A stretch of 64,000 nt of DNA from an uncultured Planctomycetaceae bacterium (GCA_964605095.1 CAZSBS010000001.1:4790-68789); one strand, 5' to 3'; numbered from the stretch's first letter, positions 21,179-44,108 are shown. The notes: generated by a model not told the origin, from the sequence alone. Translations and numbers: made by a program.

Positions 21179-21368
21179 GAACGGATCGCCCGGCTGAGGT
21201 CTGTTTGCTCATTGGCCAGGGGTTTTCCAGCTTGACAGTTTTCAGACCGCCAGTAGGATTGCGGCGGTAGCTGACACTCTCCTGTATATGAGGCCATCCT
21301 ATATCGGCCCTGGAAGCCCGCAGGAGTTGGCTGCCAACAGGTGTGAGCGCTTACAGGAAGGTCAAAGC

Positions 21369-22829: not shown

Positions 22830-22842
22830 AAACGGGCAAGGT

Positions 22843-24021: not shown

Positions 24022-24038
24022 CCGGTGACGAAAGCACT

Positions 24039-24884
24039 ATGGCCGTGCCGTTGTCAAAGACGCTTAAGAAACTTGCACTGGGCGCCATCGTCCCGCTGGC
24101 GATCCTGGCACTCTGGCACTGGGCGTCTTCGGCGAGCGTTGTCGTCCCTTCGATCTCGCGGGTGGCTGACGTGTTGGCACACCCACTCCGCAGGCCGCCC
24201 GACCTCGACGCCACCAGCCTGGCTGACGGACTGACCGTCAGCGTGCTCCGGGTCGCCCTGGGCTTCGGCTTGGCGGCCCTGACGGCCATCCCGGCCGGGC
24301 TGCTCATCGGGCGGTGCGCCGCCGCCAGGGCGATTTTTCAGCCGACTATTTCCGCGGCGATGTCCATCAGCCCCATCGCCTGGATGCCTATCGCGATCAT
24401 AACCTTCGGTCTGGCAAGCCCGGCTACCGTAGCTTACGGCGACGGCGCGTGGCGCCACGATGTGCTGGACCAACTCCGCTTCGCCGTCGTTGCCGTGATC
24501 TGGCTGGCGTCGTTTTTCCCGATCGTTGTCAACACGGCCGCGGGCGCCGGCGGGGTCAAACAAGCCCACTTGGAGGCGGCGCGGGTGCTGGGTGCGAGTC
24601 GGAGGGCGCTGCTGACGAAGGTCGTCATTCCTTCGGCCGTGCCGTCAATTGTGACCGGGCTGCGGCTTGGCGCGGGAATCGCCTGGCGGGTGATCGTGGC
24701 GGCGGAGATCTTTCCGGGCACGCGCAGTGGGCTCGGCTACATGATCGCCACGTCTCACGAGCAGGCCAGCTACGAGTACGCCTTCGCGGCCATCATCGTC
24801 ATCGGGGCCATCGGCATCAGCCTGGACGGCGTCTTTCGCCTCCTGGCCAGCCGCGTCGGCCACTGGCAGAGCAAGGAAAGGTGA
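24039..24884 (+). CDS. ABC transporter permease (SsuC/TauC/NrtB family)
   Basis: 281 aa, 6 TM segments, EAA-like loop ...GASRRALLTKVVIPSAVPSIVTGLRLGAGIAW... Confidence 0.85.
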   Translation: MAVPLSKTLKKLALGAIVPLAILALWHWASSASVVVPSISRVADVLAHPLRRPPDLDATSLADGLTVSVLRVALGFGLAALTAIPAGLLIGRCAAARAIFQPTISAAMSISPIAWMPIAIITFGLASPATVAYGDGAWRHDVLDQLRFAVVAVIWLASFFPIVVNTAAGAGGVKQAHLEAARVLGASRRALLTKVVIPSAVPSIVTGLRLGAGIAWRVIVAAEIFPGTRSGLGYMIATSHEQASYEYAFAAIIVIGAIGISLDGVFRLLASRVGHWQSKER

Positions 24885-24886
24885 CC

Positions 24887-25648
24887 ATGCCGGAGCCAGA
24901 CGAGGCCATCCGCTTCGAGTCTGTCAGCAAGTGTTTCCTCGCGCCCGTCCGTGGCGAGGTCTGGGCACTGCGGGACATCGACCTGGCCTGCGAGGCCGGC
25001 AAGTTAACCTGCGTTCTCGGACCCTCCGGGTGCGGCAAGACGACGCTGCTTCGCATCGCGGCAGGGCTTGACCAGCCGACGTCGGGGCAGGTGCTGGTGA
25101 ATTGCCGCTGCCGTGCAGGCCGGCCCGGGCTGGTCAGCCAGGAAGGCGACCTGCTGCCCTGGCGAAGGGCACTGGCGAACGTTTTGCTCGGGCTGGAAGT
25201 CCAAAGCGTGCCCAGGGCTCAGAGGAAAGCCCGGGCAAGGGCCGCGCTGCGGCGAGTCGGGCTGGGAGAGGAACTCGAGGAGTGCTTCCCCCACGAGCTG
25301 TCCGGCGGGATGAGGCAGCGGGTCGCCATCGCCCGCGCCCTTTGCCCCAACCCCAGGATCATCTTGATGGATGAACCTTTCGCCAGCCTGGACGAGCCCA
25401 TGCGATACAGGCTCCAGGAAGAGCTGCTGGCCCTGTGGGCCCAAGACCCGCGGACCATCGTGTTCGTCACGCACAGCATTGAGGAGGCGGTCTTCCTGGC
25501 CGACCGAATCGTCATCCTGGCCGAAGGCCGAAAAGTCCGGGAGTTCGCCATTGAGTTGCCGCGCCCGCGCGATCGCCTCGCTGCGGAGTTCGCACGACTG
25601 CTCTTGGACGTCCGACGAAGCGTGGCAATTAGAGCATTTCACGCTTGA
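24887..25648 (+). CDS. ABC transporter ATP-binding protein
   Basis: ATG 24887 (track ORF starts spuriously at 24314); Walker A GPSGCGKTT, signature LSGGMRQR, Walker B IILMDEP. Confidence 0.9.
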   Translation: MPEPDEAIRFESVSKCFLAPVRGEVWALRDIDLACEAGKLTCVLGPSGCGKTTLLRIAAGLDQPTSGQVLVNCRCRAGRPGLVSQEGDLLPWRRALANVLLGLEVQSVPRAQRKARARAALRRVGLGEELEECFPHELSGGMRQRVAIARALCPNPRIILMDEPFASLDEPMRYRLQEELLALWAQDPRTIVFVTHSIEEAVFLADRIVILAEGRKVREFAIELPRPRDRLAAEFARLLLDVRRSVAIRAFHA

Positions 25649-27502: not shown

Positions 27503-27584
27503 TGCGAGAGGCGGGACTCGAACCCGCACCCCTTTCGGGACCAGGACCTAAACCTGGCGCGTCTGCCAATTCCGCCACCCTCGC
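27503..27584 (-). tRNA. tRNA-Leu (anticodon TAG), type II with long variable arm
   Basis: rc: GCGAGGGTGGCGGAATTGGCAGACGCGCCAGGTTTAGGTCCTGGTCCCGAAAGGGGTGCGGGTTCGAGTCCCGCCTCTCGCA; TPsiC-loop TTCGAGT; anticodon loop TTTAGGT. Confidence 0.85.
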
Positions 27585-28276: not shown

Positions 28277-29491
28277 ATGACCATTGATTTCCGATGCGAA
28301 AACTGCGGGAAGCTGTTGAGTGTCGACGATCAGACCGGCAGCGCGGCGCGATGTCCGCATTGCCGCAAGAAAGTCACGGTCCCGGCCGCCCTGGCCGCAT
28401 TGCCCCGTCCGCACGTGCCGCCCACCGCCAGGTGCGCCACTGCTGGCTTGCCCGCCGTCGCGCAGGCGTCTGGCCAGGCTGATGGCCGGCCGGGGGAGCA
28501 AGAGCCCGTCGAGGGCGAGGCCGTCGCCGGCGCCATGGCCACGGCCATGCCATGGGTAATCAGCGCCTTCATGCACCTGGGCGTGTTCCTGGTCATGATC
28601 TTCTTCGTCATGGTGACGGTGGTCACCAAGATTCCGATTACTATCGACATACCTGAGGGGGTGAATGTCCATGAGAATCCTGGGGGCGTGATGAACCCCA
28701 AGACCGAGACGGTCTCCAAGATCGAAAGTGATCGACGGAGAGTCGTCAAGCGGGACGACCCCAAGCGGGAGGAACAGGTCGAGAGGGGCAAGACCGGCAA
28801 GAGGGTTGATCTTCTTGCTCCCTCGTCGGGTGGTGCCCGGGGCGGGGCGGCCGAATTGGGCCTGGACAACAGCGACGCGACGGGGGGGCCAGAGAGCACG
28901 TTCATCGGCGGTGGCGGCAGCGGTTTCCACATCGTGTTTGTGGTTGACCGTTCTGGCTCGATGGCTCCGACTTTCGAGCGAGTCAGGTTCGAGATGCTCA
29001 AGACCATCGCCCACTTTAAGAAGGAACAGGACTTTACGATCATCCTCTTCTCCGACAACCAGTACATCGAAGGGCCGCAGAAGCGCCTGGTCTTGGCGAC
29101 TGATGAGATCAAGGACGCGGCGACCGATTTTCTCAAGGACATAACCGCCAGCAACACGACCACGGTTTTACCAGCCCTGAAACGCGCGTTCGAGGTCCTC
29201 AAGTATGCCGACAAGGAGAAACCCGGCCGGCTCGTTTACCTGCTGAGCGACGGCGACTTTGCGGGCATGTCCGGCGGCTCGACATACACCGGCGCCGATG
29301 GCAGGGTCCTTAACGGCAACGAGGCCGTGGTCCAGTGGCTGCGGGACAACAACCCCAAGGATGAGGCGAAGGGCAGGATGCACGTTCACACGTTCCTCTA
29401 CCTCAGCAAAGACGAAGAGGCCATGAAGGTAATGAGAACCATCGCCCATGAGAACGGCGGGTGGTTCAAGCCAATTAGCGCCGATGAGTGA
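28277..29491 (+). CDS. zinc-ribbon / single-TM / periplasmic vWA-domain protein (paralog 1)
   Basis: FRCENCGKLL...CPHCRKKV C4 ribbon; TM WVISAFMHLGVFLVMIFFVMVTVV; vWA MIDAS VFVVDRSGSM...TT...LLSDGDF. Confidence 0.85.
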   Translation: MTIDFRCENCGKLLSVDDQTGSAARCPHCRKKVTVPAALAALPRPHVPPTARCATAGLPAVAQASGQADGRPGEQEPVEGEAVAGAMATAMPWVISAFMHLGVFLVMIFFVMVTVVTKIPITIDIPEGVNVHENPGGVMNPKTETVSKIESDRRRVVKRDDPKREEQVERGKTGKRVDLLAPSSGGARGGAAELGLDNSDATGGPESTFIGGGGSGFHIVFVVDRSGSMAPTFERVRFEMLKTIAHFKKEQDFTIILFSDNQYIEGPQKRLVLATDEIKDAATDFLKDITASNTTTVLPALKRAFEVLKYADKEKPGRLVYLLSDGDFAGMSGGSTYTGADGRVLNGNEAVVQWLRDNNPKDEAKGRMHVHTFLYLSKDEEAMKVMRTIAHENGGWFKPISADE

Positions 29492-29505: not shown

Positions 29506-29661
29506 ATGTGTCAGACAAATGACTTTTTTGCCGATTGCCACCAGCGCGACGGGCTGGTAAAAATACGGTTCTCTGACAGGCAAGGGCTTTTGGCTTTTGT
29601 GTCGGCCGGGATGCCCCGTAGCCGACGGCGCCAGCGCAGCGATGAGGAGATGCAAGCATGA
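29506..29661 (+). CDS. 51-codon upstream ORF in leader of paralog 2; stop overlaps main ATG (ATGA)
   Basis: MCQTNDFFADCHQRDGLVKIRFSDRQGLLAFVSAGMPRSRRRQRSDEEMQA; homologous in-frame to 5' end of gene 30890 (MRQTTVIFAGICLAGG). Confidence 0.4.
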   Translation: MCQTNDFFADCHQRDGLVKIRFSDRQGLLAFVSAGMPRSRRRQRSDEEMQA

Positions 29662-30875
29662 CCGTTGATTTCCGATGCGAGAACTGCGGGAAGATGTTGA
29701 GTGTCGACGATCAGCCCGGCAACGCGGTTCGTTGTCCACATTGCCGCAAGAAAGTCACGGTGCCCGCGGTCCTGGCCGCGTTGCCCCGTCCGCACGTGCC
29801 CCCGAACGCCAGGCATGCCGGCTCTCATTCCGGCGGGCAGTCGCAAGGCCAGGCCGATGGCGAGCAGGACGAGCAGGGCGAGGAAGAGCCCGAAGAGGAG
29901 GGCCAGGCTGTAATGGGCGCCATGGCAACGATCATGCCCTGGGTCATCAGCGTCTTCCTGCACTTGGGCGTGTTCCTGGTCATGCTCTTCTTCGTCATGG
30001 TCGTGGTGAACACCAAGATTCCGCCGGAGATCATCATTCCGGACGCCGCGCTGAGCCTGGACAATCCCGGCGGCGTGATGGACCCCAAGACCGCGACGGT
30101 TTCCAAGAGCGAGAATGATCGGCGGACGGTCGTCAAGCGGTACACCAAGCGGGAGGACCAGGTCGACAAGGGCAAGACCGAGCAGACGGTTCAGCTTCTC
30201 GCGGCCTCATCGGACGGCGCTCACGGCGGCGCGGCCGACCTGGGCCTGACCAACAGTGACGCCGCCGGCGGACCCAAGAGCCGGTTCTTCGGCTCCGGCG
30301 GCAACGCATACCACATCGCGTACGTGGTGGACCGTTCGGGCTCGATGGCCCCGACGTTCGAGCAAGTCCGTATCGAGATGCTCAAGTCCATCAGCGGCCT
30401 TAAGGCGGTGCAGGACTTCACGATCATCCTTTTCTCCGACAACCAGTTCATCGAGGGTCCGCAGAAGCGGCTGGTCTCGGCGGAGCTTGAGAACAAGCTC
30501 GCGGCGAACAATTTCCTCAAGGACATAACCGCCCAGAGTTCGACCACGGTTTTGCCGGCCCTGAAGCGGGCGTTCCAGGTCCTCAAGTATGCCGACGCCA
30601 GCAAGCCAGGCCGGCTGGTTTACCTGCTGAGCGACGGCGACTTCGCGGGCATGTCCGGCGGCTCGACGTACACCAGCGCCGACGGCAGGGCCCTTAACGG
30701 CAACGAGGCCGTGATTCAGTGGCTGCGGGACAACAACCCCAAGGATGAGAAGAAGGGGCTGGTTCACGTCAACACGTTCCTCTACCTCAACAAGGACGAG
30801 GACGCCATGAAGGTAATGAAAACCATCGCCAAAGAGAACGCCGGCCGGTTCAAGCTCATCAGCTCCGACGAGTGA
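29658..30875 (+). CDS. zinc-ribbon / single-TM / periplasmic vWA-domain protein (paralog 2)
   Basis: 405 aa, ~70% identical to paralog 1; same C4 ribbon, TM and MIDAS motifs. Confidence 0.85.
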   Translation: MTVDFRCENCGKMLSVDDQPGNAVRCPHCRKKVTVPAVLAALPRPHVPPNARHAGSHSGGQSQGQADGEQDEQGEEEPEEEGQAVMGAMATIMPWVISVFLHLGVFLVMLFFVMVVVNTKIPPEIIIPDAALSLDNPGGVMDPKTATVSKSENDRRTVVKRYTKREDQVDKGKTEQTVQLLAASSDGAHGGAADLGLTNSDAAGGPKSRFFGSGGNAYHIAYVVDRSGSMAPTFEQVRIEMLKSISGLKAVQDFTIILFSDNQFIEGPQKRLVSAELENKLAANNFLKDITAQSSTTVLPALKRAFQVLKYADASKPGRLVYLLSDGDFAGMSGGSTYTSADGRALNGNEAVIQWLRDNNPKDEKKGLVHVNTFLYLNKDEDAMKVMKTIAKENAGRFKLISSDE

Positions 30876-30889
30876 TTCCGGGAGATAGC

Positions 30890-31963
30890 ATGCGTCAGAC
30901 AACTGTCATTTTCGCGGGGATATGCCTGGCCGGCGGGCTGGCCTTTGCGGACTCGCTGACCATCAACAACCTCCCGTATGACAATGTGCGCGTCACCGAC
31001 GTTTCCAAAGGCACGATAACCTACGAGCTTAGCGGGCGCAGGTACGACAAGCCTCTGGCCGAAGTCAGCCGCGTGGTGCTGAGCGGCCAGAGGGACTTCA
31101 ACAAGGCCGAGGACGCCTTCAAGGCCGGCAAGTTTGCCGATGCCGTCGCGGCCTACACCGAGGCTGAAAAGTCCACCGATAAGCTCGACTGGCTGCGTCG
31201 GCTGATCCGCTATCGCCGCATTCCCGCGGCCGACGCGGCGAAAATGCCGGGCCAGGCCGTCGCGGACTGGTTGAGCGTCGTCGACGACGCCGGTGCCAGC
31301 CGGGCCGTGATAGCCATGGCCCCGGAAGCGGTCGCCCCCAAGGGCTCGCCCGATAACGCCTTGGCGATGGAGCTGCTGAAAAAACGCCTCGGCAAGGGCG
31401 ATCCGATATTCCGCGCCAAGGTCAAGGACCTGCTGCTTAATCTCTATGCTGCCGAGGACCTCAAAGACAAGGCGATGCTGCTCCAGGGCGAAGGGCCGGC
31501 CACCGCCCCCGGCGGCGAGCAGGCGCCCCCGCCGCTGGTGGTCTCGGTCGAGCAGGTCTCCAGGCAGTTGCAGGAGGCCGCCAGCCAGATCAAGCTCGGC
31601 CAGTACGACGCCGCGGCTGAGAGCATAAAGGCGAAGCTTAACCGGTTTACCAGCAGTGAGCTTCCAGGCGCGCTGGTGCTTCGGGGCAAGGCGCTTCAGT
31701 TGTCATACGAGAAGGGCGGCTCCAAGGATGTCAAGAAGCTCAAGGAGGCTGGGCTGTGCTTCATGCGCGTTGCGGCATGTTGCGACCCTACCACCCCGCA
31801 GGTGCCGGAGGCCCTTTACCTCGCGGCGATGGTCGAGCGTGTACTGGGCAACCATGTCGCGGCCGCCAATGCGATGCGGATGTTGATCGCCCGGTACGCC
31901 GCGAGCGAGTGGGCCCAGAGGGCCCAGACCGCGTTGGGCGGTGCCGCCGGGCCGGAGAAGTAA
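30890..31963 (+). CDS. secreted alpha-helical protein of unknown function
   Basis: RBS ggaga 30881; signal peptide MRQTTVIFAGICLAGGLAFA; Ala/Lys-rich helical composition. Confidence 0.65.
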   Translation: MRQTTVIFAGICLAGGLAFADSLTINNLPYDNVRVTDVSKGTITYELSGRRYDKPLAEVSRVVLSGQRDFNKAEDAFKAGKFADAVAAYTEAEKSTDKLDWLRRLIRYRRIPAADAAKMPGQAVADWLSVVDDAGASRAVIAMAPEAVAPKGSPDNALAMELLKKRLGKGDPIFRAKVKDLLLNLYAAEDLKDKAMLLQGEGPATAPGGEQAPPPLVVSVEQVSRQLQEAASQIKLGQYDAAAESIKAKLNRFTSSELPGALVLRGKALQLSYEKGGSKDVKKLKEAGLCFMRVAACCDPTTPQVPEALYLAAMVERVLGNHVAAANAMRMLIARYAASEWAQRAQTALGGAAGPEK

Positions 31964-32085: not shown

Positions 32086-32763
32086 ATGTGGGATTTTCAA
32101 TGGGCGACATTGGCGCAGATACAGCCCTCCGGCAATCTGGACTACTTCGAGATGCTGGTCTGGCCGGGCGGCGGGAGTATCGGCATTCTGCTGTGGCTGT
32201 TGAGCGTCGTGCTGGTTGCGCTGTGCATCCAGTTCTTCATCACGATCCGCCAGGGCAACATCATGCCCGACCTGGTCAAGCAGCAGATACAGACTCTTTT
32301 CGACAATAAGCAGTACCGCGAAGCGATCGAGGTGACGGCCACCGAGCCGAGCATGCTCAGCTACGTGGTTCATGCGGCGCTATCAGAGGCGGCGCACGGA
32401 TACGCCTCGATGGAGCGCGCCATGGAAGAGTCGGCCGAGGAAAAAAGCTCGGGCATGCTCCGCAAGATCGAGTGGCTGAATCTGCTGGGCAACATCAGCC
32501 CGATGCTTGGCCTGTTGGGAACCGTCTGGGGCATGATCCTGGCCTTCATGGCGATCGTCGCGGCCAAGGGCATCCCCTCGCCGGACGCGCTGGCTAAATC
32601 GATCGGCATCGCGCTGGTGACGACCCTGCTGGGCCTTATGGTGGCGATTCCGGCGCTAGGGGTCTTTGCCATTCTGCGCAACCGCATCGATGCGCTGAGC
32701 AACCAGGTGATCATGCAGTCGCAGGAGTTGATTTCGACGTTTCGCCCGGCCCCCAAGGGCTGA
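32086..32763 (+). CDS. MotA/TolQ/ExbB-family proton-channel stator subunit
   Basis: 225 aa; three TM helices; C-terminal MotA_ExbB region ...ISPMLGLLGTVWGMILAFMAI... Confidence 0.85.
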   Translation: MWDFQWATLAQIQPSGNLDYFEMLVWPGGGSIGILLWLLSVVLVALCIQFFITIRQGNIMPDLVKQQIQTLFDNKQYREAIEVTATEPSMLSYVVHAALSEAAHGYASMERAMEESAEEKSSGMLRKIEWLNLLGNISPMLGLLGTVWGMILAFMAIVAAKGIPSPDALAKSIGIALVTTLLGLMVAIPALGVFAILRNRIDALSNQVIMQSQELISTFRPAPKG

Positions 32764-32814: not shown

Positions 32815-33375
32815 ATGACAATGGCAACGAAAAAGTTTCGTTCATGCAGTGACGTCGGGTTCAACATGACCCCCATGATCGACTGCACGTTCCAGTTGAT
32901 CATCTTCTTCATCCTTGTCGGCCAGGTTGCCAACGAAACCTATGCCAAGAACGTGAAGCTCGTCAGGCCGGTCGACAGCCAGGCCATACCGTCGTCGGTG
33001 GCCAAGTTCACCAACAAGGTGACGGTGAACGTTGTCTCGGCCGCGGCCGGGGAGTTGAACCCGGACCCTGCCACGGCTTCGGAGTTGAAGTTCTACCAGA
33101 TTCTCACCGTGAAGTACCATGTCGGCGAGATTGACCGGATGATCGACGTAATCAAGAAACTCAGGAGCGACTACGAGAAGCAATTCGGCACGACCGTTTC
33201 GCCAACGGCAGGCGCAGGCGGCAAGGAAGGCGATGACAACCGGATGTTCTTCCTTGAGATCCGTGCCGACGAGCGCGTCAACTGGCAGGATGTGGCGCCC
33301 GTCATCCGTGCCGGCGTCGAGGCCGGCATCAACAAGATGAACATCACCGCCCTGACGGCACGGATCGGAGACTAA
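32815..33375 (+). CDS. ExbD/TolR-family protein (paralog 1)
   Basis: N-terminal MTPMIDCTFQLIIFFILV single TM typical of ExbD/TolR. Confidence 0.75.
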   Translation: MTMATKKFRSCSDVGFNMTPMIDCTFQLIIFFILVGQVANETYAKNVKLVRPVDSQAIPSSVAKFTNKVTVNVVSAAAGELNPDPATASELKFYQILTVKYHVGEIDRMIDVIKKLRSDYEKQFGTTVSPTAGAGGKEGDDNRMFFLEIRADERVNWQDVAPVIRAGVEAGINKMNITALTARIGD

Positions 33376-33883: not shown

Positions 33884-33985
33884 CTTATCCGCGCCGGGCG
33901 GGTGATGCCGCGGCAGGCTGGGCATGAGAAGAATGAGCGACATCGCCCGTTTGGATGGCGAAAGGCTCTGCCAAGGGAGACTATC

Positions 33986-34545: not shown

Positions 34546-37500
34546 ATGACGAAGATTCGCATCGGCCTGCCCAAGCTGGCTGCAATCGGCATAATCGCGG
34601 TGGCGAGCCTGTCGTGCGCGGCTGTGGCGCAAGAAAAGAAGATACCCAGCGCCTACGAGCAACTGCCGATAGACAGGCTCATCAAGCAGCTTTCGCAGTT
34701 GGGGATGACCGAACTGTTGCAGGCCATCGAGGACGATATTCCGGCCGAGGACAAGTCCTTCCGGGCTCTGACGCTCCGCGGCCGCGTCCGCATGGGTCAG
34801 GCCAACGCCATGGCCAAGCCGGAAGACCAGAACGCGAAGATGGACGAGGCCATCGTGATTCTGCGTGCCGCGGTTAAGAAGGGCCAAGAGGAGGACAGCG
34901 CCGACGCCGGCGACCAGCTCGAGTTGTATCGGGTCATGTTGGAGTTGGCGACGGCGGAGGGGCGGTACCGCATTGAAAGCCCGCACATTCTCCGCCTGCG
35001 AATGCTGCTGGGCAACGACGCCGACCGCAAGATTATACTCCGATTCACCAAGGAGGCCGTGGAACTGTCCTACATCCTTGAGGACAAGATCTCCCGCGCG
35101 CTTACGGGGTTGCGGTCGAACATGGGCGATTACATGCGATACGGACCCGCAATGGAGGACCTCCAGCGGGAGATGCGCTACAACTCCGGATGGATCCGCC
35201 TGCACCGCGCCATGGCCCTGCCAGCCGGGAGCGAGCGGGCTGAACTCTGCCGCAACGTCATCGCCGACATGAAGGAGTTCTCCGAAGACCCCGACAGCGG
35301 CGTTATGGGCTGGGCCATGTTTGCCACGGGAGCCGCCCAACGCATGCTGGGCAATTGGGCCGATGCCGATGATGTGCTCAAGAAGGTCGCCGAAAACCCC
35401 AACGAGGACAAGGAACTGCGCCAGCGGGCGTGGTTCGAACGGGTTCGAAACTGCATCGACGAGGGTGCCGACGCGAAGATCGACCGCGCCCTGGCTGATT
35501 TCGAGGCCGGCTCCCTGGCCATCTGGGGCGAGGAAAAACGGGTCATCGTCGATCTGCGTCTGGTGCTGCTGCGGAGCTATCGAGTCGAGTTGGCGGCAGT
35601 CAAGGAAACCAACGCCGCCAAGAGGAAGGCCCTGTTCGCCCAGGCCCAGGCCGAACTGCTGAAGTTCGTCGAGAAGTACGCCGACCGCCCGGACCTGATC
35701 AGGCCCTTCCTTGAAATGGTCAATACCAAGTTCGCGGGCGACGACGACCTGACCAACGCTAGCGCCATCGTCTGCATGGCAAGGGCCTATGCCAAGCTCG
35801 CCAGCGAGAAGCCCCAGGACAAGGCCGAGGGGGAAAAGCTCCTGCTGAGGGTGCTGAATCACAAGGACCTCGACAACCCCAAGATCGCCCAGGCTATCGA
35901 GCCCGGTGTGCTCTACGAGCTTGCCTTCATAATGAACCAGCGCAAGCTCAACGTCGAGGCGTCCAAGTACTTCGTCAGGCTTGCCCGCAAGTATCCCAAG
36001 CACGACCTGGCCGAGAAGTCAGCCATGTTCGCGGTCCGAAGCCTCTACGGCGTTTTAGCCGAACGCCAGGAAAAGGGCGAGGAGATTTCCCCGAGCCTTC
36101 GCCTGGAATACATCCGCGCCCTGGAAACGTTGCTGGGAAACTGGTCAACCGCGAAAGACGCCGTCAAGTGGAACTTCGACCTTGCCGCCCAGTGCATCAA
36201 GCTGGCCGGGCAGTCCGAGGAACCAGCCGTCAAGTTCTACTGGCAGGTCCGGGCAATCGCCGCCAACGAGAAGATCCCCCTGGCGATGCTGGAGTACATG
36301 GAGGCTCAGCATGCCGCCCTGGAAATGCGATACCAGATCGTGCTGAACCGCGACGAGTTGGCCGAGGTGCTCGGCGGCGGCCCCGAGCGGCTCAAGCAGT
36401 CTCTGGGCCGGCTGGCCGAGACGCTTGTGGAGCTGGACAACGTCGTCCTGCCGCCGGAGGCGTCCGCGACGTCGGCCCCGGCCGAGGACGCCGAGGTGAA
36501 GGTCTCCGCGGAAGCCCGCGACAAGAAGATCACCGAGACGGGCAAGCTGCTCAACGACAGCCTCAAGACGTACTCGGACCCGACAGCCCTTGTCGAGCAA
36601 CTCAAGAAGTACTCCGTCGACGCCCTGGCCGAGAGCAAGAAGGCGGCTGAGAAGGCCGCGTCGGTTGGGGGCGAGGAGAAGGCGCAGTTCCAGGCCAACG
36701 CCGATGGGCTCAAGGAGTGGTCCGCCCAGGCCGAATACCAGGCCGCTGTCATCAAGTACGAGCAGTTTCCCAAACTGCTCTCCAAGGACAATGCCGAGGG
36801 GCGACAGAAGATCGAACAGGAGGCCCTGGGGGATCTGCGGGCGCTGATAGCCAGGCTGACGGCCGAGGGAAAGTCCAATGGCGCCTCGGCCCGCGAGCAT
36901 TCGCCGGTCCTGCCGATGGCCCACGAGTTCGAGATACGCAAGCTCATCGAACTCGGGCGGACCGACGAGGCGATCGCCAAGATCCAGGATTTCAAGAAGT
37001 CCTTCCCCGATCAGGCCAAGCAACTTATTCAGTTGCTGGTCCAGCAGATTCAGGAGCAGATCATCCGGCTGGAGAAGCGCCTCAAGAGTGCCGTGACCCA
37101 GGCCCAGGCCGATGAGGTCCGCCAGGCGCTGGATCGCTACCAGACGGCTTACGTGAACTTCGCCAAGGACCTGTATGACCCCGTGGCAGGCAAGCCTCTC
37201 AAACTGCCTGAGTTGGAAGCCATGCGGCGCGATCTGCGGGCACTGGAGCAGAAGCGCGATTTTGACGGCCTGTTGGCAAAGGCCCAGGGCCTGCCCGCTC
37301 TGGCGGCCGAGAACGACGTGAAGCTCGAGGACCTCAAGGGCAAGGAAGTGCTGGATAGCTGGATTGCCGGCGCAAAGGCGCCGGGCGCCGACCGCAACAA
37401 CATCCTGCCCAAGCTGGCCGCGGCCACGATGAACATGGTGCTGAACATCCGCGACGTTGTCATGGAACGCTACGGACTCGTCCAGATGTACGCCGACTCG

Positions 37501-38226
37501 CTTCTGAACAGGGGCAAGGCCGAACATTTGGCCAAGCGGGACGACTCGTCCAAGGCTGCCTACAAGGAGGCCCTGGACCTGTTCAAGAAGTGCTTCGATC
37601 TGGACGACGCCTGCCGCAAGGGCGAGGCTGCATGGCTGGCCAAGAAGTACAGCCCGTTCATCGAGGACGTCAAGGCCAACGCCAAGAGCATGGGCGCCGT
37701 CAGCAGGATGGTCGAGGCCTTCCGGAAGGAGTTGAAGGACGCCGAGCAGATCCAGGCCATGTCCGCGGACATGTCGTCGATGGAGTATGCCGATAAGTAT
37801 GTCCGCGGCGCAGCCAATCAGCAGCAGGAGCAGGAGCGGCTGCCGCGTGCGGTGGAGATGCTGGTTCGCGGGTGGAACAACCTGGTGCGGACATTGCAGA
37901 ACCAGACCATTATTGACCACCTGAACATTATCGGCATGGCCCGGGCGCAGCGTGGGCTGGGCAACTATGGCGAGGCAATGGCGCTGTATCGCCGTTACAC
38001 CGAGGGTCTCCCCAGAGACAAGTTCCCCTCGAAATACTGGCATGCCGAACTGGAGCGGTGCCAGTGCAACCTGGACGGCTACCTGAGCAACCCCGAGGCC
38101 ATGAAGAACTTGGTGATCCAGATAAACTCCCTGAGGATCAAGGACAAGGAAATGGGAGGCATGGCTGCCGAGTTTGAGCAGATAAAGAAGACGGCAGGCG
38201 GCAAGGCCGGCCAGGGCGGCAAGTGA
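34546..38226 (+). CDS. 1226-aa secreted all-alpha (TPR/coiled-coil-like) protein of unknown function
   Basis: signal peptide MTKIRIGLPKLAAIGIIAVASLSCAAVA; uninterrupted ORF with protein-like K/E/A/L composition; antisense ORFs are GC-artifacts. Confidence 0.8.
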   Translation: MTKIRIGLPKLAAIGIIAVASLSCAAVAQEKKIPSAYEQLPIDRLIKQLSQLGMTELLQAIEDDIPAEDKSFRALTLRGRVRMGQANAMAKPEDQNAKMDEAIVILRAAVKKGQEEDSADAGDQLELYRVMLELATAEGRYRIESPHILRLRMLLGNDADRKIILRFTKEAVELSYILEDKISRALTGLRSNMGDYMRYGPAMEDLQREMRYNSGWIRLHRAMALPAGSERAELCRNVIADMKEFSEDPDSGVMGWAMFATGAAQRMLGNWADADDVLKKVAENPNEDKELRQRAWFERVRNCIDEGADAKIDRALADFEAGSLAIWGEEKRVIVDLRLVLLRSYRVELAAVKETNAAKRKALFAQAQAELLKFVEKYADRPDLIRPFLEMVNTKFAGDDDLTNASAIVCMARAYAKLASEKPQDKAEGEKLLLRVLNHKDLDNPKIAQAIEPGVLYELAFIMNQRKLNVEASKYFVRLARKYPKHDLAEKSAMFAVRSLYGVLAERQEKGEEISPSLRLEYIRALETLLGNWSTAKDAVKWNFDLAAQCIKLAGQSEEPAVKFYWQVRAIAANEKIPLAMLEYMEAQHAALEMRYQIVLNRDELAEVLGGGPERLKQSLGRLAETLVELDNVVLPPEASATSAPAEDAEVKVSAEARDKKITETGKLLNDSLKTYSDPTALVEQLKKYSVDALAESKKAAEKAASVGGEEKAQFQANADGLKEWSAQAEYQAAVIKYEQFPKLLSKDNAEGRQKIEQEALGDLRALIARLTAEGKSNGASAREHSPVLPMAHEFEIRKLIELGRTDEAIAKIQDFKKSFPDQAKQLIQLLVQQIQEQIIRLEKRLKSAVTQAQADEVRQALDRYQTAYVNFAKDLYDPVAGKPLKLPELEAMRRDLRALEQKRDFDGLLAKAQGLPALAAENDVKLEDLKGKEVLDSWIAGAKAPGADRNNILPKLAAATMNMVLNIRDVVMERYGLVQMYADSLLNRGKAEHLAKRDDSSKAAYKEALDLFKKCFDLDDACRKGEAAWLAKKYSPFIEDVKANAKSMGAVSRMVEAFRKELKDAEQIQAMSADMSSMEYADKYVRGAANQQQEQERLPRAVEMLVRGWNNLVRTLQNQTIIDHLNIIGMARAQRGLGNYGEAMALYRRYTEGLPRDKFPSKYWHAELERCQCNLDGYLSNPEAMKNLVIQINSLRIKDKEMGGMAAEFEQIKKTAGGKAGQGGK

Positions 38227-38314
38227 TCCGGCGCCGGAGAACATTGCCGGACAGATGTTTGAAAACCAGCGGTTGACGCGGGATTGCCTGATACTATACT
38301 GGCGCGGACAAAAC

Positions 38315-38388
38315 GGCGGCGTAGCCAAGCGGACCAAGGCGACGGATTGCAAATCCGTTATTCGTGGGTTCGAATCCCACCGCCGCCT
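38315..38388 (+). tRNA. tRNA-Cys (anticodon GCA)
   Basis: GGCGGCGTAGCCAAGCGGACCAAGGCGACGGATTGCAAATCCGTTATTCGTGGGTTCGAATCCCACCGCCGCCT; 7-bp acceptor stem, TTCGAAT T-loop. Confidence 0.88.
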
Positions 38389-38424: not shown

Positions 38425-39681
38425 ATGCTGAAGCACGCGTATCTTTCCATGCTGTGCTGCCTCTTGCTGGCTTGCGGTTATTGCTTTGCCGAGAAAAAGC
38501 AGATCAAGCTCAAGAGCGGCGAGACCATCATTGGCGAGGTTGTCGAGCAGACTCCCGAGGGGATAAAAGTCAAGCGCCCCCTGGCGACGGTGTTCTATCC
38601 GAAGGACCAGATCGTCTCGATCGAGCCGGTATACGACGTTAAGGAAGATTACGCGAATCGTCTGTCCAAGCTCAAGAAGGACGACTTCGAGGGCCAGTTG
38701 GCACTTGGGCAGTGGGCCTTGGAGAACAAGCTCTATCCCGAGGCCGTCAAGCACCTTGAAGAGGCCGTGAAGCTCAAGAACGAGGAGCGCGCCCGCTTGC
38801 TGCTTCGCCAGGCCCAGGCCAGGCTCGAGGATGCCGAGAAAGCCAAGGAGACTCCCTCCAAGGGCGGCGACAAGTCGGGGTCCTCGGCAGGCGGCGATGG
38901 TGCCACGTTCAGCATGAAGCAAATGGTCAGCGACGATGACATCCAGCGGATTCGCATGGCGGAACTCTCGGATGACGACCGGGTGAAAGTCGAGTTTCGC
39001 AAGGACGTGGTCGACAGGTTCTTGGAGCAGGTTCGTGGGCGGGGCAAATTCGCGGAGGAAACCGACGTCGCCAAGTTCCGCCGCCTGCCGGCCTTGCGCC
39101 AGGCCAAGATCATCATCGAGGAAGTCGGCCCCGGCGACCCACTCAGGAACGACATCATCATCAAGTCGGACCCGGCTTCAATGCGCGAGTTCCACTCGGG
39201 CGTCTGGCGGTGGGTTTCGACCAGTTGTGCCGCGGCGACCTGTCACGGCTCGGCCAAGGGTCAGGGCGGGCTGAAGCTCTGGAACGTTACCGCCCGAAGC
39301 GACAACGTGGACTACACCAACTTCCTGATCCTCGACGCGTTTCACACCAAGGGCGGCCTTCAGGTGATCCGGCGCGATGAGCCGGAAGAGTCGCTGCTGT
39401 TGCAGTTCGGCCTGCCGGACAACCAGGCCAAGCACCGTCATCCGAAGGAGAAACGCCCGCCGTTTTCCAGCAAGACCTCGCCGCTCTACAAGCAGACGCT
39501 GGATTGGATTCTGTCTTTGAAGCGCCCGCTGCACCCGGAGTACGGCCTCAAGAGCATTCCGCCGCACGTGATGAAGCGAATCGACCCGTTGTTCGGGCTG
39601 CCCACTTCACCGGTGCCCAAGGATAAGGGCGCCAAGGACAAGTCTGGCAAGTCTGATAAGTCAAGCAAGCCGCCTTTCTGA
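38425..39681 (+). CDS. secreted protein with C-terminal PSCyt1-like (planctomycete cytochrome-c-like) region carrying a CX4CH motif
   Basis: signal peptide MLKHAYLSMLCCLLLACGYCFA; ...WRWVSTSCAAATCHGSAKGQGGLKLWN... Confidence 0.55.
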   Translation: MLKHAYLSMLCCLLLACGYCFAEKKQIKLKSGETIIGEVVEQTPEGIKVKRPLATVFYPKDQIVSIEPVYDVKEDYANRLSKLKKDDFEGQLALGQWALENKLYPEAVKHLEEAVKLKNEERARLLLRQAQARLEDAEKAKETPSKGGDKSGSSAGGDGATFSMKQMVSDDDIQRIRMAELSDDDRVKVEFRKDVVDRFLEQVRGRGKFAEETDVAKFRRLPALRQAKIIIEEVGPGDPLRNDIIIKSDPASMREFHSGVWRWVSTSCAAATCHGSAKGQGGLKLWNVTARSDNVDYTNFLILDAFHTKGGLQVIRRDEPEESLLLQFGLPDNQAKHRHPKEKRPPFSSKTSPLYKQTLDWILSLKRPLHPEYGLKSIPPHVMKRIDPLFGLPTSPVPKDKGAKDKSGKSDKSSKPPF

Positions 39682-39712: not shown

Positions 39713-40378
39713 TTGGCGATGGAGCAGATTCAATACGCCTTCGTGGCTGTGCTGGTCGGCGTGCTGGTCGCCGCCAGCGTTTCTTTCGCGGTGATGGGCC
39801 TGGGCAAGGTTCTTCGGCGTCGCCGGTTGGCTCGCGACGCCCACCAGCGCGGGCTGAGGTTCTTTCCTGACGATCCTTACGACGTGCCGAGGCGTTATGC
39901 GGACTTCGCGGTGATATCCTCCGGGCACAGCCCGTGCGCTAACAACGTAACTGCCGGCGGGATAGTCGGCAGGACGGTGCGAGCATTCGATTTTCGCTGC
40001 GAGTTGGGCCACGGAACTCGCAGGCTCACGCGGCGCTATAGCGTGGCCATTGCCGAGACTCGCCTGAGTCAGCCGAGCCTGCTGATGTGGCACACGGGCG
40101 ACGGCGAGTTGGCCCCGCTGGCGGCAAGGGATGTCCAGGGCCGGGTCGGACAGTGGAGTTTCCGCGGGTCGCGGGAGTTGGCTGAGACTGTCGAGGCCGC
40201 GTGCCGACATCTCGGCCCGGCCCAGCCGAGCGTCGAGATTCGCGGCTCGGTCGTCCTGATAGCCGTGTCGGTGCGGCGGGCCATTCGCCAGTACGCCCTT
40301 GCCTTGGACGAAGTTTCGGGCATTATAGAGGCCCTGGACGGCCCCCGTGGCCCCAGGCCACCCGCGGTGGGGGCCTGA
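39713..40378 (+). CDS. hypothetical membrane-anchored protein
   Basis: 221 aa; N-terminal TM FVAVLVGVLVAASVSFAVMGL; coding-like GC3. Confidence 0.5.
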   Translation: MAMEQIQYAFVAVLVGVLVAASVSFAVMGLGKVLRRRRLARDAHQRGLRFFPDDPYDVPRRYADFAVISSGHSPCANNVTAGGIVGRTVRAFDFRCELGHGTRRLTRRYSVAIAETRLSQPSLLMWHTGDGELAPLAARDVQGRVGQWSFRGSRELAETVEAACRHLGPAQPSVEIRGSVVLIAVSVRRAIRQYALALDEVSGIIEALDGPRGPRPPAVGA

Positions 40379-40549
40379 CCGTGGGCCGGGCCGCCGGGCA
40401 GTCGGCGAGAATCGAGAATATCGCGTCGAAGTTGTTGGACAAGATGTATGCAGGCCGTTGCAAACGGCCCTCCGGTGTGTTAGAAAGTTGCTTGCGAGAT
40501 TCCACTGGCCGTGCCAATGCCGGCTGCGGACATATTGGGAGAGGACATC

Positions 40550-42205
40550 GTGCAAAAGGACAAACGTTTCGGTTGCGTCGCGCTGAGCTTGGTCTGCCTG
40601 TCCGCGGCGCTACTCGCGGGATGCCGCAGCACCGCCAGCCCACTGGCAGAAGCCACCGCCCGCGCTGGTCGGCTCTATGATCGGGCGTGCAGCCTGCTTA
40701 ACGACACGCCCTACATGGTCCGCCAGCAGTATGCGCCCTTCGCCAAGCCGATCGAGCTGCCCTCGGATCCCAATGCGGCGGTAAAGCTGGTCCAGCTTAC
40801 CGCGCTGGGGCAGATCAACCCGCGGGCCGACAAGACGCTCAACGAGGCCATCGACGGCCTGACCAAGGCCCTGGCTGGGGCCGAAGGCCGGCCGGAGATC
40901 GAAAAAGTCAACGCGCAGGCTGTCTTGGCCCGGCTGTACGCTCTGCGCGGCTACCGCATGTCGATCGAGGCCGGCCTGAGGTGCCGACAGGCATGGGACC
41001 TCGCCGGCCTGGTGGAAAGCGACGCAGTCCGCATCAGCGGGTTGGGCAAGCGGATCGCCAGCTACGACCAGATCCTTAGCGTCACGGACGAGTCGCTCGG
41101 CAAGATGGCCGAGGCCGCCAAGACGCAGCAGTCGGCCGCCGAGGATAAGATCGCCGAGGCCAACACGAAAATCGCGGCCCTGGACAAGGAAGAGGCGGAC
41201 CTGAAGGCTGCAAACGTCACAATCTCCGAGGAGTCGCGAAAGCTTCTCACTGAAAGCCAGATTGCTGACCCGATCAAGGGCGTCGCGATTTATGACGAGG
41301 CCAAGACTAAGGAAGACAAGGCCAGCGTGAACTCCGCCCGCATAGCGCAGATCGAAGAGGCCATGCAGACCATCAAGTCACAGGTGGCGGAGTTCGAGGT
41401 GGTTCGGGTGGCCGCGGTTAATCAGGCGAAAGTGGCTGGCGATATGGCCGATACCCGCCAGAAGAGCCGCTCCGAAACCGATCAGGCGCGGAAGGCCCAG
41501 ATTGACAAGTTGACCGAGGCCCAGAAGCAGGCGGAGACGCTGGCGGGGCAGGTCGTCGAGGTATCCAAGGCCGCCGCCGCCGCCGAGGCCAAGGCCCTGG
41601 GCGACTACGACAAGGCTGTCAAGACCTACGAGACCTATGGGCAAATCACGGAATCGTACGCCAAGGATCCAGGCGCCGATGCCTTCCTCAAGCCCGACCC
41701 CGCCATTATTGCGATGCTTGGCGACGTGCAAATGGCGCGGGCGGACCTCAGGGTCCAGGCCCTCCTGCTTCAGCATCGCCTGCAAACCGTCGTCGCGGAG
41801 ACATCCGGCATATGGTCCAGCCTGCCGACGCAGAACACCACGCCCGCGGTTATCGGACAGATGAAGGATTACGTCCCCAATCCGGGCAAGCTTAAGGAAG
41901 ATGCCCAGCGCGACTTCAGTTGGGCCGCGAGGGCCTACGAGAAGGCCAAAGAGGCTGTTATTGACCCGAAGCTCAAGTGGGCCTACGTGCTCCAGCAGTC
42001 GGCCGCGAACGTCAGCCTCTACCGCCTGTCCGGCGACGCCGACGCCAAACAGAAGGCGACAGCGGAACTGGACTCCCTCGGCACAGAGGAAGCCTCGCCC
42101 CTGATCGCCCCAACGGCTGACGGTTTCCGCAAGCTGCTGGCCGCCCCGGCCCTGCTTGGCTCCGAGGCGCCTTTCAGCCCGGCGCCCACCCAGCCCGCGC
42201 CGTGA
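40550..42205 (+). CDS. coiled-coil lipoprotein of unknown function (GTG start after RBS gggagagga)
   Basis: (M)QKDKRFGCVALSLVCLSAALLAGC lipobox; long Ala/Lys/Glu-rich coiled-coil segments. Confidence 0.6.
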   Translation: MQKDKRFGCVALSLVCLSAALLAGCRSTASPLAEATARAGRLYDRACSLLNDTPYMVRQQYAPFAKPIELPSDPNAAVKLVQLTALGQINPRADKTLNEAIDGLTKALAGAEGRPEIEKVNAQAVLARLYALRGYRMSIEAGLRCRQAWDLAGLVESDAVRISGLGKRIASYDQILSVTDESLGKMAEAAKTQQSAAEDKIAEANTKIAALDKEEADLKAANVTISEESRKLLTESQIADPIKGVAIYDEAKTKEDKASVNSARIAQIEEAMQTIKSQVAEFEVVRVAAVNQAKVAGDMADTRQKSRSETDQARKAQIDKLTEAQKQAETLAGQVVEVSKAAAAAEAKALGDYDKAVKTYETYGQITESYAKDPGADAFLKPDPAIIAMLGDVQMARADLRVQALLLQHRLQTVVAETSGIWSSLPTQNTTPAVIGQMKDYVPNPGKLKEDAQRDFSWAARAYEKAKEAVIDPKLKWAYVLQQSAANVSLYRLSGDADAKQKATAELDSLGTEEASPLIAPTADGFRKLLAAPALLGSEAPFSPAPTQPAP

Positions 42206-42416: not shown

Positions 42417-44108
42417 ATGCGTAAGTATGCGAATAAGTCCATGGAGGCGCTGGCTGCGGAGTTGACCGCAGGCCTCAAGAGGCTCCGCAAGGGGTATGCG
42501 GACGCGGCCGAGGGGCTGCTTGAAATCCTCGACCCGCACAGGGAGTATCCTTACGAGTTCGTCGTCTATCGCCTGACGGGCTATCGCCCGCCGACGGGCA
42601 TCGCGGGCGAGCCGATGTCTTACAAGTCGCTGGGCGGGGACCTGCTCCTGCTCATCCTGGACATCTGCGACAGCACGAACCTGTCCACGGAGGACTATCC
42701 CGAGAGTGTCTACGACACGCCGGCGCTAGCGCAAAGGTTCAACGTTTCATCCAAGACGATCCAGCGATGGTGCCGCGGCGGGCTCGTGGCCAGGCGGCTT
42801 GTCTTTCCGGACGGGCGGCGGCGTGTGGCGTTCCTGGAAAGCTCCGTGCGGCGCTTCTCGCACGACCGGCGAGGGCAGCTCACCCGGTCAGGGCGGTTCA
42901 CGCAAATGACGGAGGGCCAGCGGCAGGACATCATCCGCCGCGCCCGGCGGATGGCGGAGTTTTGCCCATGCACCCTCAGCGACGTTGTGCGGCGTCTGGC
43001 CGGGCGGATCGGCAGGGCCAAGGAGACCATCCGCCACACCATCCGCAAGCATGACGCCGAGCATCCGGACCAGGCGATCTTCCCGCGGCTCGCCAGGGCG
43101 CGCAGGCTTAGCGACCAGGAGAAGCTCGCCATCTACCGCGGGTTCCTGCGAGGCGTGCCGGCCCAGGCCCTTGCAATGCGGTATCATCGCACCCGGGGCA
43201 GCGTCTATCGGGTCATCAACGACATGCGGGCCCAGCGCCTGCTCGAGCGCCCGATACGGTACGTCCACAACCCGCAGTTTGACCTGCCCAATGCCGACGA
43301 GCAGATCATCAACTCGGCCGCGGACGCCGGCTTTGCCGACGGGCATACGTCAGACGAGCTTGCCCACGCCGAGATGCCCAAGAACCTGCCGCCTTACCTC
43401 AAAACGCTCTACGAGGTCCCGCTGCTGTCGGCGGCGCAGGAGCGCGACCTGTTTCGGCTGTACAACTACCTCAAGTACAAGGCCGACAAACTCCGCGGCA
43501 AGCTGGACCTCAATCGCATACGCACCACGCAGCTTCGCGAGATCGAGCAACTTCTGCTCCAGGCCAACGTGGCCAAGAACAAAATGGTCCGCGCCAACCT
43601 CAGGCTGGTCGTCTCCATCGCCAAGAAACACGTTGGCGGCGTGCAGAACCTCTTCGAGCTCATAAGCGACGGCAATGTATCGCTGATGATGGCCGTCGAG
43701 AAGTTCGACTACTCTCGTGGCAACCGCTTCTCGACCTACGCCTCGTGGGCGATCATCCGCAATTTCGCCCGATCAGTGCCGCGGGAACGCTATCAACTCG
43801 ACCGTTTCGCCACCGGCCACGATGGTATCCTCGACGTCGCCGCGGGTATGCAGACTTATGACCCTAACGACGTCAACCCGTCAGAGTTGCGAGAGAGCAT
43901 CGACGTCGTCCTGGCGCAACTAAACCCGCGGGAACGGGCCGTACTTATCGAACATTACGGCCTGGACGAGCGCAACACGCCGTTCACGTTCGACCAACTC
44001 GGACGCCACATGGGCATCTCCAAGGAGCGAGTCCGCCAGATCGAAATCCAGGCCCTTAAGAAACTCCGAAGCATACTTCGCCCAAAGAGGGCGGACCTGA
44101 TGTGGTGA
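42417..44108 (+). CDS. sigma-70 family RNA polymerase sigma factor with ~325-aa N-terminal extension
   Basis: regions 2-4: ...LISDGNVSLMMAVEKFDYSRGNRFSTYASWAIIRNF... and ...FDQLGRHMGISKERVRQIEIQALKKLR; N-terminal part has HTH-like TPALAQRFNVSSKTIQRWCRGG. Confidence 0.85.
   Translation: MRKYANKSMEALAAELTAGLKRLRKGYADAAEGLLEILDPHREYPYEFVVYRLTGYRPPTGIAGEPMSYKSLGGDLLLLILDICDSTNLSTEDYPESVYDTPALAQRFNVSSKTIQRWCRGGLVARRLVFPDGRRRVAFLESSVRRFSHDRRGQLTRSGRFTQMTEGQRQDIIRRARRMAEFCPCTLSDVVRRLAGRIGRAKETIRHTIRKHDAEHPDQAIFPRLARARRLSDQEKLAIYRGFLRGVPAQALAMRYHRTRGSVYRVINDMRAQRLLERPIRYVHNPQFDLPNADEQIINSAADAGFADGHTSDELAHAEMPKNLPPYLKTLYEVPLLSAAQERDLFRLYNYLKYKADKLRGKLDLNRIRTTQLREIEQLLLQANVAKNKMVRANLRLVVSIAKKHVGGVQNLFELISDGNVSLMMAVEKFDYSRGNRFSTYASWAIIRNFARSVPRERYQLDRFATGHDGILDVAAGMQTYDPNDVNPSELRESIDVVLAQLNPRERAVLIEHYGLDERNTPFTFDQLGRHMGISKERVRQIEIQALKKLRSILRPKRADLMW

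Follow-up and report, generated by a model that had tools for sequence, protein, structure and literature searches.

The 5:2 motors of the ExbB/TolQ/MotA type power import (Ton), envelope integrity and division (Tol-Pal), flagella and gliding, and periplasmic partners built of tetratricopeptide repeats (TPRs) are already known for them: CpoB, which has ~260 aa, GltC/D/E, and PflA/PflB, a large periplasmic TPR scaffold that positions MotA/ExbB-family stator units. Known transducers engage ExbB/TolQ by an N-terminal transmembrane (TM) helix with the motif S-x3-H. In a stretch of 64,000 nucleotides from an uncultured Planctomycetaceae bacterium (GCA_964605095.1 CAZSBS010000001.1:4790-68789; the whole stretch is hereafter called the window), one ExbB gene and three ExbD genes are directly followed, on the same strand, by a gene for a 1226-aa exported protein that we call BIG; a preliminary description of the window had likewise set this gene immediately 3' of the ExbD genes. 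Our reading, to which we give a probability of about 55%, is that BIG is a soluble periplasmic TPR-type α-solenoid that serves as scaffold or adaptor of an envelope machine driven by the proton motive force, the von Willebrand factor A (vWA)-TolQR machine, across the Phycisphaerae.

In Myxococcus xanthus, the protein GltD (AgmU, MXAN_4870) measures 1191 aa, carries a signal peptide, lacks TM segments and gives a weak Pfam TPR match, and it is tied genetically to the TolQR-type motor aglRQS, the tethered, TonB-like transducer GltG and the smaller TPR protein GltE (PMC3169522). The Agl-Glt core complex comprises aglRQS and gltC/D/E/G, which outside the Myxococcales form one operon of unknown function (PMC3169522), and GltD has been modelled as a 'central pillar' binding the C-terminal domains of the transducers and the outer-membrane connector GltC (PMC11761067). 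Judged by these published descriptions, GltD appears to be the closest functional analogue of BIG, in the sense of 'works like' and not of family membership. BIG is also an exported, weakly TPR-like protein of ~1200 aa linked to TolQR-type motor genes; it resembles GltD in length (1226 versus 1191 aa), in its signal peptide, in the lack of a TM segment and in its weak Pfam TPR match, and in both proteins, which are helical, further helical parts lie on either side of the TPR regions. Both systems combine a TolQ/TolR-type motor with a single-pass transducer on a long disordered periplasmic tether, and both add a second, smaller TPR protein (GltE, ~471 aa; here a 363-aa protein, TPR363); the vWA proteins of the window are, moreover, like GltJ, which has a cytoplasmic Zn ribbon (PMC11761067). 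The transducer head, however, is a vWA domain here and TonB_C in Agl-Glt; GltD, to judge by the numbering of its mature chain from Cys1 (PMC11761067), appears to be a lipoprotein, whereas in BIG the signal peptidase I (SPase I) site is conserved and a lipobox is not; outer-membrane barrels of the GltA/B/H type do not occur near BIG, unlike in Agl-Glt; and the taxa differ, with BIG in Phycisphaerae and Agl-Glt in Proteobacteria, Myxococcota or Fibrobacter. NCBIfam gave no gliding-protein match for BIG, which is weak negative evidence on homology with GltD.

Recently, 'vWA force transducers' with a TonB/TolA-like topology were proposed in the Planctomycetes-Verrucomicrobia-Chlamydiae (PVC) group (Williams-Jones et al. 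2025, Mol Biol Evol msaf138; PMC12204202), in a study based on genomics alone, with no function or experiment. The cluster of the window, as distinct from BIG itself, fits that system in its S-x3-H TM helix, ~100-residue disordered linker and C-terminal vWA domain, and in its adjacent TPR gene, tolQ-like gene and at least two heterologous tolR-like genes; the window has two transducer paralogues, as has Tichowtungia (PMC12204202). The vWA gene, however, comes first in the string here and last in the clusters of Williams-Jones et al., whose paper names no more than 'an uncharacterized TPR gene' 5' of tolQ; we found no mention there of a TPR protein of ~1200 aa encoded 3' of tolR. The vWA-TolQR cluster type is already known, having been noted computationally in 2025 (PMC12204202). 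The novelty lies in the giant TPR proteins, a large family without annotation whose genes hold a fixed place at the 3' end of the motor genes in all Phycisphaerae loci that were examined.

Export signal, fold and family of BIG

34546..38226, + strand: BIG, 1226-aa exported all-helical TPR-type solenoid protein
34546..34629, + strand: Sec signal peptide of BIG, residues 1-28, with a predicted SPase I site AVA↓Q
34630..36441, + strand: N-terminal solenoid half, residues 29-632, the module conserved best across the family
36442..36507, + strand: flexible inter-domain linker, residues 633-654, rich in Pro/Ala/Ser/Glu
36508..38223, + strand: C-terminal helical half, residues 655-1226, with conserved blocks at ~790-880 and ~1100-1226 and variable insertions between

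The 1226-aa open reading frame (ORF) that the preliminary description had placed at 34546-38226 is exact in coordinates, strand (+) and length. Its GC content at third codon positions (GC3) in the coding frame, 0.846, matches that of the neighbouring genes (0.78-0.86), so BIG is a native coding gene. As had also been claimed, the protein begins with a signal peptide; it is of the Sec type, with a predicted cleavage site: an n-region MTKIRIGLPK, an h-region LAAIGIIAVASLS and a c-region CAAVA↓QE. Among 18 close homologues, A26 and Q29, which flank the predicted SPase I site, are invariant, and Cys24 is not conserved. The signal peptide is the sole hydrophobic segment of BIG (residues ~11-28) and contains no His, and the C-terminus, a short tail rich in Lys and Gly, has no hydrophobic segment. 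In the family alignment of 151 full-length members, an N-terminal hydrophobic stretch is present in 142, a later TM-like segment in none and a lipobox-like motif in 19.

An AlphaFold2 (AF2) model of residues 29-1226, built from an alignment of 18 sequences, has 50 helices and zero strands, with a mean predicted local distance difference test score (pLDDT) of 84 and a predicted template modelling score of 0.55; BIG shows the helix-turn-helix repeat solenoid fold of the TPR / TPR-like α-solenoid superfamily. The N-terminal half reaches a pLDDT of mostly 85-95, and a disordered hinge at full-length residues ~633-654 divides the protein into two halves, the linker (model residues 605-626) being without secondary structure and falling below a pLDDT of 50 at 611-622. 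The composition (A 13.9%, L 11.2%, E 9.0%, K 8.2%, P 3.2%) agrees with the earlier picture of Lys/Glu/Ala/Leu-rich, TPR-like helical repeats as far as composition, all-helical structure and TPR likeness are concerned, whereas sequence repeats and a classical coiled coil are not borne out. Self-BLAST at E≤10 found no internal sequence repeat, so the 'repeats' of BIG are structural only, and at the DNA level only trivial microrepeats were present; the long helices, as read from the helix list of the model, would be antiparallel hairpins inside the solenoid rather than a classical coiled coil. The best Pfam match of BIG itself is TPR_12, at 24 bits versus a cut-off of 30.1, with sub-threshold TPR matches at residues 982-1015 and 1130-1158, and its relatives P0040, P0060 and P0151 score 34.2, 32.4 and 29.4 on TPR_6 (cut-off 26.3).

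A sequence profile search of the PDB returned nothing meaningful for BIG (best E-value 0.14). By structure, the Foldseek matches of BIG include chain 9hmf_K (E 2.5e-3) of PDB 9hmf, which holds the PflA/PflB-type scaffold of the Campylobacter flagellar motor, a resemblance that amounts to generic solenoid similarity (template modelling scores 0.14-0.21); unlike in the PflA/PflB setting, the motor here is of the ExbD/TolR type (PF02472) and not of the MotB type, and no flagellar genes are among the cluster genes scanned. The folded solenoid is probably also shorter than was first supposed. GltI, with 3822 aa, is estimated at ~1100 Å (PMC11761067), and scaling from it gives BIG a reach of probably about one periplasm width, at most roughly 350 Å, so that the earlier suggestion of a protein able to span the periplasm many times is an overestimate.

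An exhaustive profile search found 361 representatives of the BIG family at 50% clustering (E≤1e-3), of which 207 lie at E≤1e-30; most members have 900-1100 aa. A word-indexed search gave 21 relatives, all full-length, with identities down to 44%, plus one at 23%, and a second such search with a divergent BIG alignment did not extend the family. Every member with a source name is a 'hypothetical protein' of Phycisphaerae or Planctomycetes metagenome-assembled genomes (MAGs), and the six GTDB loci found with BIG relatives are all in Planctomycetota MAGs. No Pfam or NCBIfam model passes its cut-off on BIG, and no description of the family was found in the searchable literature. Conserved modules comprise residues ~50-600, ~790-880 and ~1100-1226, and regions 601-780 and 881-1100 are rich in indels; column occupancy is 0.9-0.99 in the N-terminal half and 0.27 in the linker, and profile matches align best at positions 1-570. 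The C-terminal blocks hold TPR motifs and an MGG..F motif. Conserved residues are mostly the TPR-signature Ala, Leu, Gly, Phe, Trp and Pro, and conserved charges are few (D160, R266, E298, D336, D401, D1124 and R1133).

Gene order around BIG in Phycisphaerae

27503..27584, - strand: tRNA-Leu(TAG), upstream of vWA-1, the 5' boundary in most relatives
28277..29491, + strand: vWA-1 (Pfam VWA_2, 38 bits), with Zn ribbon, TM helix (S-x3-H), linker and vWA domain with metal ion-dependent adhesion site (MIDAS); candidate force transducer
29658..30875, + strand: vWA-2, tandem paralogue of vWA-1 (73% identity) with the same architecture
30872..31963, + strand: TPR363, 363-aa exported protein with a weakly YbgF/TPR-like C-terminus
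32086..32763, + strand: ExbB/TolQ-type proton channel subunit (PF01618, 96 bits; top NCBIfam match tolQ)
32815..33375, + strand: ExbD/TolR-1 (PF02472, 47.6 bits), TM Asp in MTPMIDC
33377..33883, + strand: ExbD/TolR-2 (PF02472, 56.6 bits), TM Asp in MTPMIDV
33902..34492, + strand: ExbD/TolR-3 (PF02472, 54.1 bits)
38315..38388, + strand: tRNA-Cys(GCA), 88 nt past the BIG stop, the 3' boundary of the gene string

Ten independent relatives carry the whole cluster (L001, L002, L004-L007, L009-L011 and L013), with BIG identities of 22-77%. In the window and in all ten, the order is vWA (one or two copies), a ~360-aa protein, ExbB, ExbD (two or three copies) and BIG, and L017 and L018, which were reached via vWA homologues, have the same order. 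The ~360-aa protein stands between vWA and ExbB in every such locus (with 609 aa in L004), and BIG measures 1057-1243 aa in the relatives' clusters and 879 aa in L016. On the shorter contigs L012, L015 and L016, BIG directly follows an ExbD gene or a cut upstream gene, and BIG was separated from ExbD in none of the loci examined. The distance between the two genes runs from -4 nt (an overlap, L015) to +87 nt. In the window, it measures 53 nt (ExbD-3 stop 34492 to ATG 34546) and not 70 bp, as the preliminary description had it; the co-transcription proposed there nevertheless stays reasonable, as does a scaffold role, because the linkage with ExbB/ExbD is tight and wide and no terminator signal above background lies between ExbD and BIG. 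The terminator scan (19 versus 15.1 ± 3.7 in shuffled sequence) is uninformative either way on the end of the operon.

The tRNA-Cys gene occupies the same place after BIG in all ten scanned relatives with downstream DNA, even at 22% BIG identity. Wherever the contig continues past BIG, tRNA-Cys(GCA) is followed by a ~400-428-aa protein and then, usually, by ~215-aa and ~520-670-aa proteins, a 560-aa sigma-70 and a ~316-aa protein. At the other end, the opposite-strand tRNA-Leu 5' of the first vWA gene is kept in most relatives scanned, though not in L013, so that the string from vWA to BIG lies between two tRNA genes. Beyond it, the 5' flank differs: Alginate_exp, ATP-binding cassette (ABC) and family 2 glycosyltransferase (GT2) genes in the window, rpoA-L17-HIT-PPIase-GT2 in L001, GT4/FGE-sulfatase in L013 and flagellar export genes in L017. 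Because the upstream flank varies among relatives, the 5' edge of the cluster is a real boundary. At the deepest divergence, identity to the window is ~60% for ExbB, 60-65% for the sigma factor, 35-42% for vWA, ~40% for ExbD and 22-30% for BIG; from these values and the retention of BIG in the string, BIG is fast-evolving yet strictly retained.

TPR363 bears on the idea that BIG is a CpoB/YbgF-like periplasmic TPR regulator, which would coordinate peptidoglycan synthesis or remodelling with a Tol-like, motor-driven constriction and would transmit no force. BIG scores 17.1 bits on TIGR02795 (cut-off 90.1) and is about five times as long as CpoB, and the upstream TPR363 is the better YbgF-like match (30 bits in NCBIfam). 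The setting of CpoB/YbgF, with TolA, TolB and Pal, also differs, as the scanned cluster genes of the window do not include tolB or pal, and we consider this role unlikely for BIG.

Three points weigh against our reading of BIG as a scaffold of the motor. First, the synteny spans the string from vWA to the sigma factor across the class, in a core-genome neighbourhood (rpoA, SecY and EF-G lie in the window), and the linkage may therefore reflect, in part, inherited gene order rather than function. Second, the fast evolution of BIG (22-30% versus ~60% for ExbB) fits a scaffold and fits equally a surface-exposed or unrelated protein. Third, a Sec signal alone cannot separate a periplasmic BIG from an outer-membrane-associated or extracellular one. 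The first two points are what would be expected if BIG were an unrelated general periplasmic or secreted TPR protein, such as a chaperone or adhesin scaffold, kept in place by a frozen ancestral gene order: the macro-synteny runs through tRNA-Cys, the two downstream lipoproteins and sigma-70 in all relatives with enough downstream DNA, and BIG evolves much faster than the motor. We nevertheless regard this as distinctly unlikely, since the BIG-ExbD adjacency persists despite rearranged upstream flanks (L013 and L017), the gaps are short, with start and stop overlapping in L015, the genes are co-directional and bracketed by tRNAs, and BIG was never found apart from ExbD in the loci examined.

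The last two points would also suit a cell-surface or extracellular BIG whose secretion or movement is powered by the motor. A Sec signal is present, fast evolution with large indel-rich regions is typical of exposed proteins, and vWA-motor systems have been speculatively tied to gliding (PMC12204202). The C-terminus of BIG, however, shows no evident PEP-CTERM-type sorting signal, the AF2 model contains neither a β-barrel nor other β structure, the lipobox-like motif is confined to the 19 family members mentioned above, and the scan of the cluster genes recognised none for a secretion system; a surface location of this kind seems quite improbable to us.

vWA proteins as the more likely energy receivers

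Both vWA proteins consist of a cytoplasmic Zn ribbon (CxxC...CxxC), a TM helix, a disordered linker and a vWA domain, and these motifs hold in both sets compared, 15 copies taken from the loci and 27 homologues from databases. The TM helix contains the invariant residues M93-P94-W95-S98-H102 (MPW..S-x3-H; 27 database homologues), the MIDAS is intact (D225-S227-G228-S229, DRSGSM, plus T296 and D326), and the ~110 residues from the TM segment to the MIDAS are mostly predicted to be disordered (15 copies from the loci). In the AF2 model of vWA-2, the Zn ribbon occupies residues 3-34 and the TM helix 83-119, pLDDT falls below 50 at 119-203, and the vWA domain follows at 207-401 with a pLDDT of ~90; Foldseek matches to vWA/integrin I domains confirm the vWA fold.

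The preliminary description had suggested that BIG may be the energy-receiving or scaffold element of the stator. Of these two roles, that of scaffold or adaptor is supported, and that of energy receiver is not, because cleaved BIG has no membrane helix with which to dock onto ExbB and no S-x3-H; the two membrane-anchored upstream vWA proteins are the more likely receivers of energy from the motor. BIG could still be imagined as a replacement for TonB/TolA, pulled or rotated directly by the ExbB/ExbD motor: like TonB/TolA it adjoins exbB-exbD, sitting right after three ExbD genes, it is long enough to cross the periplasm, and a canonical TonB/TolA gene is not among the cluster genes scanned. 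TonB and TolA, however, keep an uncleaved N-terminal TM helix with S-x3-H(-L-S), whereas the one hydrophobic segment of BIG belongs to a short signal peptide that carries the conserved AxA↓Q, has no His and provides no SHLS TM anchor. They also have a Pro-rich or long single-helix spacer (domain II), in place of which BIG has its 50-helix solenoid, and a globular C-terminal TonB_C/TolA_C domain, which BIG lacks. That BIG has neither a Pro-rich spacer nor a TonB/TolA C-terminal domain had been anticipated, and our searches agree: no Pro-rich 100-aa block occurs in BIG, no Pfam or NCBIfam match to TonB_C or TolA_C was obtained at E≤0.01, and the AF2 model has no strands. The absence of these domains does not make BIG a transducer. 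Because vWA proteins of the same string bear the invariant S-x3-H and a TonB-like three-part topology, direct energy reception by BIG appears very improbable.

The number of vWA genes varies, with one in L001 and L002 and two more divergent copies in L010, L011, L013 and L017. Several ~259-aa proteins (P0225, P0226, P0229 and others) match only about half of vWA-2, at 65-78% identity; either their gene calls may be truncated, or they may represent a shorter paralogue whose gene lies at another place. As to the motor subunits, the TM aspartate is kept in all three ExbD paralogues, and ExbD-2 and ExbD-3 look like recent paralogues. The true start of ExbD-3 is probably the ATG at 33983, not the listed GTG at 33902, because MAISTSRTVEGDEKVHH parallels the N-terminus of ExbD-2, MAITANKPVEGDETVHH. 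In L002, the third ExbD has shrunk to a 72-aa ORF that overlaps the start of BIG. An anti-phage defence motor, such as Zorya, was considered and rejected: PADLOC gave no match for BIG, vWA, TPR363, ExbB, ExbD or the downstream lipoproteins.

Neighbouring genes and the proposed role of BIG

38425..39681, + strand: 418-aa predicted lipoprotein (LLLAC), conserved neighbour, possible envelope partner and candidate member
39713..40378, + strand: 221-aa membrane protein, conserved neighbour and candidate member
40511..42205, + strand: 564-aa predicted lipoprotein (LLAGC), helix-rich, fast-evolving conserved neighbour and candidate member

Just 5' of tRNA-Cys, at 38273-38300, lies a strong promoter-like site of the sigma-70 type, TTGACG-16-TATACT. 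The 564-aa lipoprotein is rich in Ala/Lys/Glu/Gln, has no Pfam match and evolves as fast as BIG, with about 24% identity or none detectable in distant relatives. The 418-aa lipoprotein carries the stretch SCAAATCHGSAKGQGGLKLW, with the spacing C-x4-CH, which we take to resemble the CxxCH-G...GGLRL signature of planctomycete cytochrome-c (PSCyt1) domains; no Pfam match to a PSCyt1-type domain was obtained at E≤0.01. Paralogy between BIG and TPR363, and between TPR363 and the 418-aa lipoprotein, was rejected, as BLASTP found nothing significant in either case. Further downstream, a sigma-70 family protein of 563 aa (42417-44108) has a ~380-residue N-terminal extension with matches of helix-turn-helix type; it is 60-72% identical to the window in the relatives compared and always lies 3' of the cluster. 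Upstream of the GT2 gene, positions 21288-25648 of the window encode an Alginate_exp-type outer-membrane porin, then an NMT1-like binding protein and an ABC ATPase. Positions 1-6302 of L017 show Pfam matches to Bac_export_1, Bac_export_2, FHIPEP, an SRP54-type GTPase, a ParA-type ATPase and sigma-70, which we read as fliR, flhB, flhA, flhF, flhG and fliA; they lie a few kb upstream of the cluster, with HIT and GT2 genes in between, and these flagellar export and regulation genes indicate that at least some of these Phycisphaerae are flagellated.

For BIG as a scaffold or adaptor of the vWA-TolQR machine, we infer the physical contacts, the final location beyond export and the cellular process served as follows. 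The ExbB-ExbD motor of the 5:2 type would turn proton flow into movement, and the vWA proteins would dock on it by their S-x3-H TM helix, as TonB and TolA do, and extend into the periplasm on the ~100-residue disordered tether. Signal peptidase I would free BIG into the periplasm, where it would present two long concave TPR surfaces linked by a hinge; one side may bind the vWA head or tether, the ExbD periplasmic domains, or both, and the other may bind outer-membrane or cell-wall partners, for which the downstream lipoproteins (LLLAC and LLAGC) are candidates. BIG would then act as a periplasmic pillar that relays or positions force. We also put forward, tentatively and as a doubtful extension of the scaffold reading, that BIG is the periplasm-spanning pillar of a third class of trans-envelope proton machine beside Ton and Tol-Pal, in which the vWA MIDAS clamps BIG and BIG joins the outer-membrane lipoproteins. 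On this view, and because no Phycisphaerae locus examined lacked the cluster, such a machine could perform an important envelope task in the lineage, such as constriction or tethering of the outer membrane or surface motility.

If BIG is a mere neighbour, it is an ordinary hypothetical TPR protein. If it belongs to the machine, the vWA-transducer system gains a defined, class-wide partner in the form of exported TPR proteins of ~900-1240 aa whose genes come right after those of the motor. BIG thereby becomes a concrete candidate for the periplasmic link, with vWA MIDAS-BIG, BIG-ExbD and BIG-downstream lipoproteins as candidate contacts. The compositional parallel with the ancient Agl-Glt core complex, if true, would make the combination 'motor + tethered transducer + giant TPR pillar' a recurrent design for transmitting force across the periplasm.

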